The notes: generated by a model not told the origin, from the letters alone. A stretch of DNA of 19,358 nt from Promethearchaeota archaeon (GCA_008080735.1 SHMW01000082.1:1-19358), one strand, 5' to 3'; shown: positions 8,964 through 16,113, numbered from the stretch's first letter. Program-made: numbers and translations.

Positions 8964-11036
8964 ATGGATTTTTTCTACGAGATCCTCAAAAATCGCATTG
9001 GCTTTTCACGCGTGGGTCGAATTAATGAGATAGGATCATCAAAACCTGTAAAGACGCCTAATATTGTTATCCCAATTAACAAAACTCTGATGAATAATTT
9101 TGATTTTGTCGATACTTTTGGATGTCATGAAATCTTTATTATTTCTGACGAAATCTATTTAGATGAACAATTTTTAGATGGGATGTTTATAGATTCTGGA
9201 TTTTTTTACTATCATAAAGGAACCGTTCAGCGGTTTACAGAAATATTAGAAAAAAAGAAGGACCTTATCGAAAAGAATAAGGTAGTACCAATCCTACCAT
9301 TTTCAATCCCGACAACCACCGTAAATTTTGAATTTGCGGAAAAAGAATTGGTTTATTACCTAAATAAATTGGATAACATACTTAAAAACCATCCAGCCAT
9401 TAATTTTGGTTTATCCATTCGTTTTTTTGATTATTATGAAGTTTTAGAACGGTATAAAGTATTGATACAAAAGCATAACAACATAAAGTTGCTAAATTTC
9501 CTTGATATTTTTGATAATCTTAGGTTTTTTCGTAATAAATTAGAAGCGATAATAAAATTAAAAGACGAATTAGATAACAATCTTGTTCTAATGGCATCAG
9601 GACGGGTTTTGACGAAATATATCCCTATTATTGTATATCTGGGCTTTGATTTAATCAATAGTTCATATCTCACTCATTTATCCGCAGAAAGCTTTTATGA
9701 TACGATAGATAATCTTATCCCCGCATATAAAGTAAGATATCTTCCGTGTAATTGTTTATCTTGCCAAAATAGACTAAAAGGATTATTGGAAGAAAAATAT
9801 TCTGCGGATAAAATAGATTTATTATGTTATCATAATTTCATTGTTGCTCGCAATTATATGAATAAAACAATTCAATATCTACATACGGAGGATTTCCGAG
9901 CTCTCGTCGAAAAATCATCTTTAAACGAGCTGAATTTTAAATCTTTGTTGAAAATATGCGATAAGAATTATTTTGAACAACTCAAATACCATTCAAAAAT
10001 GATTCAAAAAAATAGGGAAATAACTTGTTTAGGTCCTATATCGTACAATAGACCCGATTTTGAGTATTTCAGAAGAAATGTGTTAAACACTTTTACGCCC
10101 GAACCATGGACGAAACTCATTATCTTATTACCCTGTTCAGCAAAAAAACCCTATTCTCAATCAAGATCTCATCAAAAATTTTATGACATCATTCGGCAAT
10201 TTTCTGAATTTCCTTCTTTTCAAGAAATCATTCTTACTTCCCCTTTGGGGGCTATCCCGCGACAATTAGAAAATATATATCCAGTTAATTCATATGAGAT
10301 ATCAGTAACGGGAGATTGGAATACGGAAGAGATAGAAATCGCTGCGAATATGTTATCTGCTCTATTAAATAAATTTGATAAAGATATTCCTGTAATCTGT
10401 CATCTTGATGGAGGGTATTTAGATATTGCAAAAGAAGCGGAAAAATCTGTTAAGAACCAGTTAATCTTCTCCAACGTGGACGATCATCTCACTTCGGACG
10501 ATGCGCTCAAAAAGTTAGAAAATAATCTACAGAATAATATTTCAGAATTTAAACCCAAAATGAACATTTCTTCAGATAATAAACTTACAAAATCATGGCG
10601 TAGAAAATTTTCAAAAATAATTGATTATCAGTTTGGAATGGGGTTTGGAGAAAAATTAATCTCAGAAAATGTACGATATAAGAGAGATCATAGAAATACT
10701 CGGTTTTATTTGGAAAATAAAAGCAATGGAGACCAACTAGGAACGTTTAAATTTTCCACGGGAAAGATAAGATTATCCATAAAGGGAGCAGAAAGAATTG
10801 CATATCTCCCGGATTTTTCTAATTTTATTATATTTGATGGTACAGTATTAAAAGGAAATACCTTATTTATGCCAGGTATCAAAAATTATGCTCCAAATCT
10901 CTTACCAGATCAAAATGTATGTATATTCGACCAAAAGAAAGAATCCATTATAGCGATGGGAGATATGATTACAAGCTCACGGTTTATTCAAAATTCAACA
11001 TCAGGAAAGGTAGTAAAAATCTATGAAACTAGATGA
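8964..11036 (+). CDS. arcS: Archaeosine synthase subunit alpha (ArcS; TGT-like N-terminus, C-terminal PUA-like domain)
   Basis: TGT-like start (SRVGRI..KTP), Zn motif PCNCLSC...HN, ArcS motif LLPCSAKKPYSQSRSH, LTSPLGAIPR.LE..YP, VTGDW, and a PUA-like end (GNTLFMPGI). Overlaps raSEA by 14 nt. Confidence 0.9.
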   Translation: MDFFYEILKNRIGFSRVGRINEIGSSKPVKTPNIVIPINKTLMNNFDFVDTFGCHEIFIISDEIYLDEQFLDGMFIDSGFFYYHKGTVQRFTEILEKKKDLIEKNKVVPILPFSIPTTTVNFEFAEKELVYYLNKLDNILKNHPAINFGLSIRFFDYYEVLERYKVLIQKHNNIKLLNFLDIFDNLRFFRNKLEAIIKLKDELDNNLVLMASGRVLTKYIPIIVYLGFDLINSSYLTHLSAESFYDTIDNLIPAYKVRYLPCNCLSCQNRLKGLLEEKYSADKIDLLCYHNFIVARNYMNKTIQYLHTEDFRALVEKSSLNELNFKSLLKICDKNYFEQLKYHSKMIQKNREITCLGPISYNRPDFEYFRRNVLNTFTPEPWTKLIILLPCSAKKPYSQSRSHQKFYDIIRQFSEFPSFQEIILTSPLGAIPRQLENIYPVNSYEISVTGDWNTEEIEIAANMLSALLNKFDKDIPVICHLDGGYLDIAKEAEKSVKNQLIFSNVDDHLTSDDALKKLENNLQNNISEFKPKMNISSDNKLTKSWRRKFSKIIDYQFGMGFGEKLISENVRYKRDHRNTRFYLENKSNGDQLGTFKFSTGKIRLSIKGAERIAYLPDFSNFIIFDGTVLKGNTLFMPGIKNYAPNLLPDQNVCIFDQKKESIIAMGDMITSSRFIQNSTSGKVVKIYETR

Positions 11037-12353: not shown

Positions 12354-12602
12354 ATGAATTGGTACAAATTAAACTTATTTCACTTGGGATTTTCTGCAAA
12401 AAACCACGCCATTTTCCGGGCAACCAAATGGAATAAAAAGCTTGAAGCTATAATTAAAAAACCAATCTTTAATGAAGAATATGAGAAGATCGGATTTATT
12501 CTCGATATCTTCGGTCCACACTCAAATCCCTTTATTTCAATCAAACCTGAACCCAATATAGAAATTGGGAAAAATAATAAGTTTTATGTTAAGGTAGCTT
12601 GA
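12354..12602 (+). CDS. gar1: H/ACA RNP subunit Gar1/Naf1 family protein
   Basis: Motif IGFILDIFGPHSNPFISIKP matches the Gar1 consensus (IG.V.DIFGPV..PY..VKP). It sits immediately upstream of tfb, a common archaeal arrangement. Confidence 0.82.
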   Translation: MNWYKLNLFHLGFSAKNHAIFRATKWNKKLEAIIKKPIFNEEYEKIGFILDIFGPHSNPFISIKPEPNIEIGKNNKFYVKVA

Positions 12603-12659
12603 TGGTTTTTAGATTCTTATAGGTTAGTTAATGTATTTTTTTAAAAAAAGGTGTGTTCG

Positions 12660-13601
12660 GTGGAAAGAATAAAACAAAAAGCTTCATCAGAAAATCTCAT
12701 CATTGAGAAAAATACCTGTACTGAATGTGGAGAGAATATCTTTTTTGATGAGAATAGAGGTTTATTAGTATGTGAGAGCTGCGGGTTGGTTCATTCAGAA
12801 AATTATATCGATAGAGGGCCAGAATGGAGAGCCTTTGATGCGGATCAGAGGAAAAAGCGGACGCGAACGGGTGCTCCGATGACATATATGATCCACGACA
12901 AGGGATTGTCCACGATGATCGATTGGAAGAATAAGGATTTCTATGGAAGGGAAATTCCTGCAAAATTACGTGGACAGATTTATCGCCTACGTAAATGGCA
13001 GAGTCGAATCCGGGTTAGCGATGCAACAGAACGGAATTTAACCTTTGCCTTGAGCGAACTTGATCGAATGGCCTCAAATTTGGATTTACCAAAAAATTTA
13101 AGAGAATGTTCTGCGAAAATTTATCGTGATGCTGTGGAAAAACATCTCATTCGAGGAAGAAGTATCGAAGGAGTAGCGGCGGCAAGTTTGTACGCGGCAT
13201 GTCGGATGTATAAGGTTCCCAGAACATTAAATGAAATTGCTGACATTGCCAGAGTGGATAAAAAAGAAATAGGGCGTTCTTTTCGCTTCATCTCTAATGA
13301 GCTTCATATGAATTTAAATCCCACTATCGCCTCAGACTTCTTAACTCGTTTTATCTCAGAATTGGGATTATCCACAAAATGCCAGAAGATCGCTAAGAAG
13401 ATTATTAAAATGGCACAAGATCGCGGATTAACTTCAGGTCGCGGCCCAACTGGGGTATGTGCAGCAGCTATTTATGCCTCTACTCTTATTACAAAAGAGA
13501 AGAGGACCCAAAGAAAGATTGCCCGTATTTCACAGGTGACGGAAGTCACGGTACGGAATAGATTCTCCGAATTAGTGGAGTATCTGAATTTAAACCTCTA
13601 A
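12660..13601 (+). CDS. tfb: Transcription initiation factor IIB (TFB)
   Basis: Zn ribbon CTEC...CESCG, B-reader DRGPEWRAF, HDKGLST, RLRKWQ, and two cyclin folds (IRGRS, SGRGP, VTEVTVRNR). GTG at 12660 follows SD-like AAGGTG; 12651 is the alternative start. Confidence 0.97.
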   Translation: MERIKQKASSENLIIEKNTCTECGENIFFDENRGLLVCESCGLVHSENYIDRGPEWRAFDADQRKKRTRTGAPMTYMIHDKGLSTMIDWKNKDFYGREIPAKLRGQIYRLRKWQSRIRVSDATERNLTFALSELDRMASNLDLPKNLRECSAKIYRDAVEKHLIRGRSIEGVAAASLYAACRMYKVPRTLNEIADIARVDKKEIGRSFRFISNELHMNLNPTIASDFLTRFISELGLSTKCQKIAKKIIKMAQDRGLTSGRGPTGVCAAAIYASTLITKEKRTQRKIARISQVTEVTVRNRFSELVEYLNLNL

Positions 13602-14363: not shown

Positions 14364-14831
14364 ATGAATTATTCTGAAGATGAACGGATGTTAAAAAAGA
14401 TCCTAAATGCTATTATTAATAGCACCGCGGGATTAAGATATGCCATCATTATTGATGACACCGGTATTACGATTATGAGTCAATCCAAGTTTAAGCTGGC
14501 GGATGATGAGATTTCAGTGGAAAAAATTGGTGCTATTGGGGGTGCGGTATTTATGGCTGGAGAGGAACAGGGGCAGATTCTTAATTACGGAAAGATTGAC
14601 CTTCAAATCACCGAATATGGAAAAGGAATGTTATTTTCGATGAAAGTTGGAAAAGGAGTACTCTGTTTAGCATCTGATAAAAATGTTAATATCGGCTTTG
14701 TTAGAGCGGTGATGAAAAAATGGGCCCCTAAATTAGGAAAAATATTAGATCGCTACCTTGAAAGTGACCAAGACGCAATAAATGAAGAATTAAAAGAACT
14801 CTTCAATTCAGATACAATAAGCATGCTTTGA
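14364..14831 (+). CDS. Roadblock/LC7 (LAMTOR2/MglB-like) domain protein
   Basis: GLRYAIIIDDTGITI, helix IGAIGGAVF, LQITEYGKG.LF and NIGFVR together span the full roadblock fold pattern. Confidence 0.82.
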   Translation: MNYSEDERMLKKILNAIINSTAGLRYAIIIDDTGITIMSQSKFKLADDEISVEKIGAIGGAVFMAGEEQGQILNYGKIDLQITEYGKGMLFSMKVGKGVLCLASDKNVNIGFVRAVMKKWAPKLGKILDRYLESDQDAINEELKELFNSDTISML

Positions 14832-15623: not shown

Positions 15624-15677
15624 AAATAAAGCTAAAGACGCAATGCTAAATTGAGCTTAAGAATTAGAAATTAGTAG

Positions 15678-15960
15678 ATATGTCGCCTAAAACACTAACA
15701 CATTTTTCTCATCTTAGGGGAGGTTTGTCCCATAACATCAAAAATGTTCTCTCGTGTTAGGCATTTGGGTTGGGACATAATCATGTATCCTGTCTGGGTA
15801 ACTGACTCACACCTCATCGCATTGGTATTCACCATAGCTAGGTAAAGAGCCCATTTTGGCCAGGATTGGTAGATTTACTGATTACTAAACTCGGGATGTC
15901 TGCTCGTTTTTGCACATATACTCATCTGTTTGTCATATATGCCCTCGACTAAGCATGTAT
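15678..15960 (-). ncRNA. Predicted three-hairpin box H/ACA pseudouridylation guide RNA
   Basis: On the minus strand, three stem-pocket-stem hairpins (15955-15901, 15866-15787, 15763-15684) each end at an ACA (15899-97, 15786-84, 15683-81) and each carries a GAUGA K-turn/K-loop motif. The hairpin 1 pocket is complementary to conserved 23S rRNA UUUGC-UA-CCUCGAU, 14 nt from ACA. The region is GC-richer than its flanks and has no credible ORF. Confidence 0.78.
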
Positions 15961-16113
15961 TCCTTCAGCGTTTTCCCATTTAAGATATATTATTCCGGGA
16001 TTAAAAATTTAATTCTAATTTTGTAAAAATGGACTTTTTTTGTATTTAGAATGAATTTTTAGGGGCATTGGGCGATCGATAGGTAAAAATTTTAATGCGT
16101 TTAAAATAATATA

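Follow-up and report, generated by a model that had tools for sequence, protein, structure and literature searches.

H/ACA small RNAs (sRNAs) that carry three guide motifs in a single molecule are known from the Thermococcales (Pab40, Pf7 and Pho40) and from Archaeoglobus (Afu-4) (PMC2377435). In Pab40, motif 1 modifies pseudouridine (Ψ) 2588 of Pyrococcus abyssi 23S rRNA, motif 2 is atypical and weakly active, and motif 3 aims at the loop of helix 69 (PMC2377435). Pyrococcus hairpins obey two distance rules, with 10 stacked layers between the pocket and the second G·A pair, and 14–15 (16) nt to the ANA box (PMC4652768). Another archaeal multi-hairpin guide, sR-h45 of Haloferax volcanii, serves helix 69 and domain V uridines; that RNA works with spacings of 17–19 nt to the ACA box, with four target bases left unpaired and with AUA substituted for ACA, and the haloarchaeal spacer may form extra structure (PMC7075261). 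No paper on Asgard H/ACA sRNAs was found in the literature searched. Here we describe an RNA gene on the minus strand of a 19,358-nt stretch of DNA (hereafter the window) from Promethearchaeota archaeon (GCA_008080735.1 SHMW01000082.1:1-19358), and we conclude from sequence comparison that its product is very probably a divergent Asgard ortholog of the three-motif H/ACA sRNA known as HgcG, Pab40, Pf7, Pho40 or Afu-4.

Results

Conservation and covariation of a three-hairpin RNA

BLASTN against 36 genomes of its family recovered full-length homologs of the window RNA in 33, with identities of 66–89%. Covariation was assessed on a plain MAFFT alignment of 34 sequences that was not fitted to structure, and as a control the pairing partners were slid by 1–3 columns. 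With the predicted partners 85.6% of alignment cells pair, as compared with 32–45% in the slid controls, and 47 of 75 pairs have changed on both sides, as compared with 14–20. The covariation score of 0.277 contrasts with values of ≤0.10 for the slid partners and was equaled in 0 of 500 shuffles. These differences from the controls indicate that the region encodes a structured RNA. An unconstrained minimum free energy (MFE) fold recovers all three hairpins with a z-score of only −1.6 relative to shuffled sequences. Folding energy alone is thus no evidence, and the case rests on conservation and covariation.

The same alignment supports assignment of the RNA to the H/ACA class. Each hairpin (HP1 to HP3, Table 1) comprises a lower stem (P1), a pocket and an upper stem (P2), in which 83–95% of cells pair and 3–6 pairs per stem are compensatory. 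Specifically, P1 and P2 of HP1 are 95% and 87% paired with 4 of 5 and 5 of 8 pairs compensatory; all six P1 pairs of HP2 are compensatory and its P2 is 85% paired; and in HP3 P1 is 87% and P2 86% paired, the latter with 5 of 8 compensatory pairs. Beside these variable stems, the pocket strands and ANA boxes are invariant. The GA and (R)AUGA letters of the kink-turns (K-turns) or kink-loop (K-loop) are invariant or nearly so, as are the A-N-A positions, where AUA and AAA variants occur. HP1 (10 stacked layers from the closing pair to the second G·A, 14 nt to ACA) and HP3 (10 layers to the K-turn with one bulged G, 16 nt to ACA) both fit the Pyrococcus rules. The geometry of HP2 is atypical, with the K-turn 12 layers and the ACA 17 nt away (16 nt in most relatives and 14 nt in distant homologs). 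Some pocket letters reach well beyond the family: at the levels of family, class and phylum alike, UCGAGG and GCAA of HP1 vary little or not at all, ACCC of HP2 is invariant across the phylum, and GUUAGUG of HP3 is kept across the phylum.

Two covariance models were used to follow the RNA further. R1, built on the basal clamp (described below) plus HP1, found the RNA in 114 of 126 family genomes, as a single copy per genome, and in three other families of the class. R2, built on HP3, extended the range of this hairpin to another 10 families of the phylum Promethearchaeota, with matches in 17 genomes. Nine of these loci were fetched, and seven of them contain an R1 match upstream of HP3, mostly at a distance of 100–140 nt. 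The host genome also encodes Gar1 (within the window), Nop10, a 340-aa TruB/Cbf5-type frame and two L7Ae-family paralogs.

A few loci depart from this pattern. In one genome (G013, genus g8, 100% complete) the RNA was not found by BLASTN, R1 or R2, although it is present in three congeners, which reflects either loss or an assembly gap. At locus L093 (G249:C13, 286–483), which belongs to a distant family, the HP1 and HP3 matches lie about 22 nt apart and may represent a two-hairpin version without HP2. One sister-genus genome holds a second, weaker match to the HP3 model (G072:C17:42379-42460, minus strand, 59 bits, E = 1.3e-12), with the main copy (42970-43053) about 500 nt upstream of it; the second match may be a duplicated single H/ACA hairpin.

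A first-pass annotation, made from the window sequence alone, had proposed an unannotated three-hairpin H/ACA guide in a GC-richer gap, free of reading frames, in an Asgard-like genome. Every element that it listed is present in its place, and our independent count of the pocket-to-ACA spacings agrees with its own. The homolog and covariation checks that it had suggested bear it out, as does the conservation of stems, pockets, ANA boxes and G·A letters. The relatives are indeed Promethearchaeia/Promethearchaeota metagenome-assembled genomes (MAGs). G+C amounts to 41.9% over 15681–15978 of the gap, whereas the remaining spacer has 23–26% and the window as a whole 32%, and the gap's longest stop-free frame is ≤59 codons. 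What the annotation missed is that this kind of guide is already known, and that the hairpins are joined by a clamp and junction helices.

Table 1. Coordinates of the RNA gene and its elements in the window
Feature	Position	Strand	Sequence or remark
H/ACA RNA gene, ~300 nt	~15681-15978	minus	three hairpins plus junction helices
TATA-like box TTTTTAA	16001-16007	minus	follows an A-rich stretch resembling a TFB recognition element (BRE-like); predicted promoter
Helix A, 5′ strand	15974-15978	minus	UGGGA; pairs with UCCCA 15771-15775
Helix A, 3′ strand	15771-15775	minus	UCCCA; closes three-way junction of HP1 and HP2
Basal K-turn, bulged strand, box C-like	15961-15973	minus	AAAC (stem I), GCU (bulge), GA, A, GGA (stem II)
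Basal K-turn, non-bulged strand, box D-like (CnGA)	15887-15896	minus	UCC (stem II), C, GA, GUUU (stem I)
HP1, overall	15897-15955	minus	lower stem P1, pocket, upper stem P2, K-loop, ACA
HP1 lower stem P1	15951-15955 with 15901-15905	minus	UGCUU/GAGCA
HP1 5′ pocket	15943-15950	minus	AGUCGAGG
HP1 upper stem P2	15935-15942 with 15914-15921	minus	GCAUAUAU/GUAUAUGU
HP1 K-loop	15922-15934	minus	GA...GAUGA
HP1 3′ pocket	15906-15913	minus	GCAAAAAC
HP1 ACA	15897-15899	minus	preceded by G
Helix C, 5′ strand	15879-15885	minus	GUAAUCA; pairs with UGAUUAU, closes HP2
Helix C, 3′ strand	15777-15783	minus	UGAUUAU; directly 3′ of HP2 ACA
HP2, overall	15784-15866	minus	K-turn hairpin with atypical geometry
HP2 lower stem P1	15861-15866 with 15787-15792	minus	AUCCUG/CAGGAU
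HP2 5′ pocket	15852-15860	minus	
HP2 upper stem		minus	GGCUC/GAGUC plus UACC/GGUG
HP2 K-turn	15814-15820	minus	GC-GAU-GA, opposite UA-GC
HP2 cap		minus	UGGU-GAAU-ACCA
HP2 3′ pocket	15793-15803	minus	AGUUACCCAGA
HP2 ACA	15784-15786	minus	
HP3, overall	15681-15763	minus	K-turn hairpin
HP3 lower stem P1	15757-15763 with 15684-15690	minus	UGCCUAA/UUAGGCG; CAC/GUG extension probable
HP3 5′ pocket	15748-15756	minus	(CAC)GAGAGA
HP3 upper stem	15740-15747 with 15700-15707	minus	ACAUUUUU/AAAAAUGU
HP3 K-turn	15709-15713 (GAUGA)	minus	GA...GAUGA
HP3 3′ pocket	15692-15699	minus	GUUAGUGU
HP3 ACA	15681-15683	minus	
3′ tail	15660-15680	minus	U-rich; alignments A1, A2

Relation to the HgcG/Pab40 family

The Rfam model of HgcG (RF00064) aligns over its full length to three distant, GC-richer homologs of the window RNA with 33, 29 and 24 bits (E = 1.4e-6 to 1e-3), and among 151 phylum genomes it has matches at E ≤0.01 in 13, with a best score of 51.9 bits. 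The link from the window RNA to HgcG is transitive, leading through R1 and R2 to the distant, GC-richer loci and from there to RF00064. The correspondence is nonetheless detailed. Both RNAs combine three H/ACA motifs that all include an ANA box and a K-turn or K-loop, and the order and pocket letters of motifs 1, 2 and 3 correspond. The HgcG consensus of motif 1 shows the pocket letters cGAgG and GCGA and shares the predicted target of HP1, Pab Ψ2588. Motif 2 is atypical in both and has the 3′ strand AACCC(U/A)G, which as AACCCuG adjoins the lower stem in the HgcG consensus. Motif 3 has a UGUUA 3′ pocket and a lower stem split 7+3, comparable to GCCUAA plus CAC/GUG here, and is aimed at helix 69; the predicted Asgard target falls in the same helix 69–70 segment, possibly at a different U.

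The Asgard RNA differs from HgcG/Pab40 in being AT-rich and too diverged for RF00064 and in having shorter lower stems. It also adds a C/D-like clamp, helices A and C and, in most relatives, a helix that closes HP3. Its HP3 5′ guide reads GAGAGA instead of GGUUAG, which suggests a target shift from E. coli position 1915 to 1921, and in its own family the HP2 pocket carries a 3–4 nt AGY insertion.

A basal K-turn and closing helices

The 5′ leader and the HP1–HP2 linker form a K-turn, which places HP1 and its ACA box inside a clamp. Its consensus is AAAU-AAU-GA-U-GGA with UCC-n-GA-GUUU, and in the family alignments the UGA is invariant. Stem I is 92–97% paired and all 4 of its pairs have changed on both sides; stem II is 99% paired with 2 of 3 pairs changed on both sides. 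Covarying variants include UGAU/AUCA, AGAC/GUCU, AGA/UCU and GAA/UUC, and the element is kept in other families and classes, e.g. as UUUG/CAGA and UUGC/GCAA. Two long-range helices complete the junction. Pairing in helix C extends to 96.5% of cells, and three of its seven pairs have changed on both sides, with variants such as AUAAUU/AAUUAU and GCCA..UCA/UGAUGGC. Helix A is the weakest supported long-range helix, since 85% of cells pair on alignment A2 and the computed count holds one-sided changes only, with GGUA/UACC and GGGGA/UCCCC variants recognized by eye. In most relatives an additional helix of GCAUA, upstream of HP3, with UAUGC in the 3′ tail closes HP3, and this helix is missing in the present genome. 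A box D (CUGA) that follows HP3 in some relatives was considered and rejected as not conserved; the pairing of AUGC with GCAU alone is kept.

The clamp resembles the K-turn of archaeal box C/D RNAs, and the C/D motif attached to Pab21, in its stem I, 3-nt bulge, tandem G·A pairs, mismatch and G–C pairs (RUGAUGR with CnGA). As in a box C/D sRNA, the C-like and D-like boxes form a stem-closed K-turn in which both stems covary. Unlike such sRNAs, the Asgard clamp has no C′/D′ boxes and no free guides of 10–12 nt; the space between its boxes is taken up by the folded HP1 with its ACA. The clamp and junction helices are elements not described for Pab40. They would probably provide a fourth L7Ae site and stabilize or pre-fold the RNA.

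Predicted rRNA targets

No rRNA is assembled in the MAG itself, so targets were read from relatives, using eight large-subunit (LSU) rRNAs and one small-subunit (SSU) rRNA of the family. The HP1 guides GCAA (3′) and (A/G)UCGAGG (5′) would pair with UUGC[U]U-CCUCGAU through 4+7 bp, leaving UU unpaired. The target of HP1 is probably this bracketed U of the peptidyl-transferase region, at about E. coli 2496, equivalent to P. abyssi Ψ2588 and yeast Ψ2865. The sequence UUGC[U]UCCUCGAU is invariant in all eight family LSU rRNAs and ranks first when scores are summed over them. In addition, the spacings of Pab Ψ2549, Ψ2588 and Ψ2603 (39 and 15 nt) equal those of yeast Ψ2826, Ψ2865 and Ψ2880, and the LSU rRNAs of the relatives have uridines at −39 and +15 from the HP1 site, where they are expected. 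The matching spacings and these uridines equate the HP1 site with Pab Ψ2588 and yeast Ψ2865.

For HP2 and HP3 no outstanding site emerged from a strict canonical scan with shuffled-guide controls. Regarding HP2, our tentative choice is CUGGGU(U)[U] at E. coli 2585/2586, which the 3′ guide (A)ACCCAG would address. This site is favored by the distant homologs, where AACCC(A/U)G has the canonical position, immediately beneath the upper stem with 14 nt to ACA; in the family of the window RNA the AGY insertion intervenes in this pocket. The A loop at U2554 is a rather unlikely alternative. Its sequence GGGU-GG-GCUG[UUC]GCCCAUU is complementary to CAGY..ACCC and AAUGGGC of HP2, and it ranks first for HP2 in an unconstrained duplex-energy scan, yet its score lies inside the range of shuffles. 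Both candidates were found before we read the study in which the same two sites are debated for motif 2 of Afu-4 and Pf7 (PMC2377435).

Regarding HP3, the 3′ guide GUUA pairs with either UAAC of GUAAC-UA-UAAC-UCUCUU in helix 69–70, and the 5′ guide GAGA(GA) fits UCUU or UCUCUU. In the canonical register the target would be E. coli 1921, equivalent to yeast Ψ2264, an assignment that we hold to be possible without giving it the confidence of the HP1 site; positions 1915/1917, as in Pab40, are a doubtful second choice. In three loci of genus g5 (L011, L012 and L015) a 10-nt insertion (GUUUCGGCUC or similar) lies between the HP3 3′ pocket GUUAGUGU and the lower stem; unless folded or otherwise paired, it would increase the spacing to ACA to about 26 nt.

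Several other sites were tried and dismissed. When the whole genome was scanned for a perfect HP3 target, the top hit was CAUUAAU-UG-UUUCUCGUG, which falls within a PAS-domain gene (a PAC motif) and is no more frequent than expected by chance. For the same hairpin, LSU UUAGC[U]GGUUCUC is not conserved in a same-genus LSU rRNA and is geometrically inconsistent. SSU helix 13, GAGCCC...GGGUACUG, is complementary to both HP2 pocket strands in reverse topology, with a guide spacer that varies in length, and GGGUAGCU for HP2 is not conserved. Nothing convincing was found among the 12 tRNAs of a first aragorn run (an intron-allowing run counts about 27). We also observed that three pocket strands (15748-15756, 15845-15852 and 15796-15802, minus strand) resemble the sense strand of 23S rRNA: ACGAGAG(A)AC resembles the sarcin-ricin loop, GGGCUCUU (GGCUCUU) resembles CGGCUCUU next to the HP1 target, and GUUACCC resembles GUUACCCC of domain V. 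These resemblances are probably coincidental.

Transcription unit and genomic context

The first-pass annotation had placed the RNA at 15678-15960, with a TATA-like sequence near 15980-15995. The RNA itself stands, and its 5′ start does not: the 5′ end is predicted about 18 nt further upstream, at about UGGGA (15974-15978). The proposed TATA-like sequence is merely AT-rich spacer. Instead, in 32 relatives anchored on the box C UGA, a conserved motif (TTTTTAA, TTTATAA or TTTATTA) that follows an A-rich stretch precedes the U of UGGG by about 26 nt, and in the window TTTTTAA is its predicted, promoter-like counterpart. A TATA-to-start distance of about 26 nt is the spacing of archaeal promoters, which suggests that transcription starts at or next to UGGG. 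At the other end, many relatives have a T run within 10–25 nt in the 3′ tail.

The RNA lies between a diphthamide-synthase-type gene and a metallo-beta-lactamase-fold gene. These flanking genes are shared with just one relative, and synteny is not kept even among close relatives, which indicates that the RNA is not tied to its neighbors. Together with the promoter-like motif this fits the independent gene that had been proposed, with transcription as the inferred step. The nearness of gar1, which had been pointed out as well, is real in that gar1 and a TFB gene lie 2–3 kb from the RNA gene; it is probably due to chance, since synteny is not conserved.

The window contains further genes. At 12354-13601 (plus strand) gar1 (82 aa) is followed after 48 nt by the TFB gene on the same strand. 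A 690-aa frame at 8964-11036 (plus strand) has TGT, DUF5591, TGT_C2 and PUA domains, as in an archaeosine tRNA-guanine transglycosylase-like gene. A 155-aa frame at 14364-14831 (plus strand) shows a weak, sub-cut-off match to MAPKK1_Int (MP1/roadblock-like fold), a family often listed among the Asgard "eukaryotic signature" proteins.

Discussion

We propose that the locus would be transcribed independently into an sRNA of about 300 nt, the Asgard (Promethearchaeia) version of the HgcG/Pab40 guide. Judging by the family to which it appears to belong, the ANA box and lower stem of each hairpin would recruit one Cbf5-Nop10-Gar1 set, and the K-turn or K-loop would recruit one L7Ae. The pocket strands would then pair with 23S rRNA on either side of an unpaired uridine, which Cbf5 would convert to Ψ.

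Several results weigh against this proposal. With 5–7 bp the lower stems are short compared with 7–9 bp in Pyrococcus. HP2 violates either the K-turn or the ACA distance rule under any assumed target. In the canonical register the HP3 arms amount to just 4+4 bp, and why its CAC and GUG are invariant is explained by analogy alone. The targets come from the rRNAs of relatives, and their scores are not significant alone, as shuffled guides score equally well or better on one LSU plus SSU; in the strict canonical scan of that pair even the HP1 site, with a score of 25, falls inside the shuffled-guide range (maximum 28). The statistical support for the targets lies in the conservation of the sites and in their consistency with the Pyrococcus RNA that has been studied by experiment, and not in the scores. 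No Rfam family matches the window RNA, at the gathering cut-off or at E ≤10, in keeping with its having been called unannotated; RF00064 matches in 0 of 25 genomes of its own family and nowhere in the phylum reaches its gathering cut-off of 77 bits. The hits that the window gave at E ≤10 (such as SOX2OT, Six3os1 and sR24) are due to chance.

An H/ACA build does not by itself imply that every hairpin modifies rRNA. One or two of them, HP2 above all, could instead act as chaperones of rRNA folding or processing, like yeast snR30 and in part snR10. The 12 layers and 17-nt spacing of HP2, for which no one canonical target satisfies both rules, would suit such a role, as would the complementarity of its pocket strands to the two arms of the A-loop hairpin (GGGU-GG-GCUG and GCCCAUU) and the atypical, weakly active motif 2 of Pab40 (PMC2377435). 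However, the HP2 ANA box is conserved in relatives, the 3′ guide AACCC(A/U)G of distant homologs sits at the canonical 14 nt from ACA, and stem-loop SL2 of H. volcanii modifies its target at a spacing of 17–19 nt with four unpaired target bases (PMC7075261). We therefore regard a non-modifying role as improbable. It is still less likely, in our view, that the C (AUGAUGG-like) and D (CnGA) boxes around HP1 assemble a true C/D ribonucleoprotein (RNP) with Nop5 and fibrillarin, which would guide 2′-O-methylation alongside the H/ACA roles. The basal motif does fit the C/D K-turn consensus with covariation in both stems, and one form of Pyrococcus Pab21 bears a C/D box motif (PMC2377435). Against this, inspection revealed no C′/D′ pair at the right spacing (no further methylation-target search was made), the place of a free guide, the 12 nt before the D-like box, is occupied by the ACA and the 3′ strand of P1, and a folded hairpin of about 85 nt separates the boxes.

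That the region is no RNA gene at all, and is conserved as a regulatory element in cis, as a gene for a small protein or as a mobile element, we consider hardly credible. The modest MFE z-score would be in its favor, but compensatory changes are restricted to the predicted stems, and this covariation largely refutes it. Furthermore, indel lengths are not divisible by three and open frames stay at or below 59 codons, the RNA is single-copy with flanking genes that differ among relatives, and some relatives match a curated H/ACA family. A divergent HgcG/Pab40-type guide remains the reading that we prefer.

The first-pass annotation had also suggested a bearing on the origin of eukaryotic small nucleolar RNAs (snoRNAs), an idea that is weakly served by our results. 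Yeast snR46 (Ψ2865), snR3 (Ψ2264) and snR10 (Ψ2923) (PMC5699541) use the same guide mechanism at rRNA positions equivalent to the HP1, HP3 and alternative HP2 targets. The likeness is one of rRNA position, as these are eukaryotic two-hairpin snoRNAs with an H box, Nhp2 in place of L7Ae and no K-turn. Likewise sR-h45, compared here by its published features, has two hairpins, not three, and no basal K-turn has been described for it. The best-supported target, that of HP1, is already modified by Pab40 in Pyrococcus; the shared site is thus older than the Asgard archaea, and because the same guide serves it there, it reveals no special link between Asgard archaea and eukaryotes. A bolder view is that the clamp and closed junction are a phylum-wide Asgard innovation that forms a pre-organized particle in which L7Ae has four sites, as a stage on the way to composite RNAs of eukaryotes like small Cajal body-specific RNAs (scaRNAs), and that together with this HP3 was re-aimed along the UAAC repeat from Ψ1915 to E. 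coli 1921/yeast Ψ2264. We think this unlikely; if it were true, the pattern of Ψ in Asgard 23S rRNA would be more eukaryote-like than that of other archaea.

What is new, then, is the Asgard-wide presence of this RNA below the Rfam threshold, its C/D-like clamp, its closing helices and the possible re-aiming of HP3. It constitutes an RNA gene that Rfam-based annotation has missed in all of the approximately 150 Asgard genomes sampled, and it predicts three pseudouridines at functional centers of the Asgard LSU, in the peptidyl-transferase region, in helix 93 or the A loop, and in helix 69–70. The clamp and closing helices represent a variant that may interest those who study L7Ae/K-turn RNPs and the origin of snoRNP architecture. 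With its occurrence in Thermococcales, Archaeoglobus and Asgard archaea, the three-motif guide of the Pab40 type would be both old and widespread.

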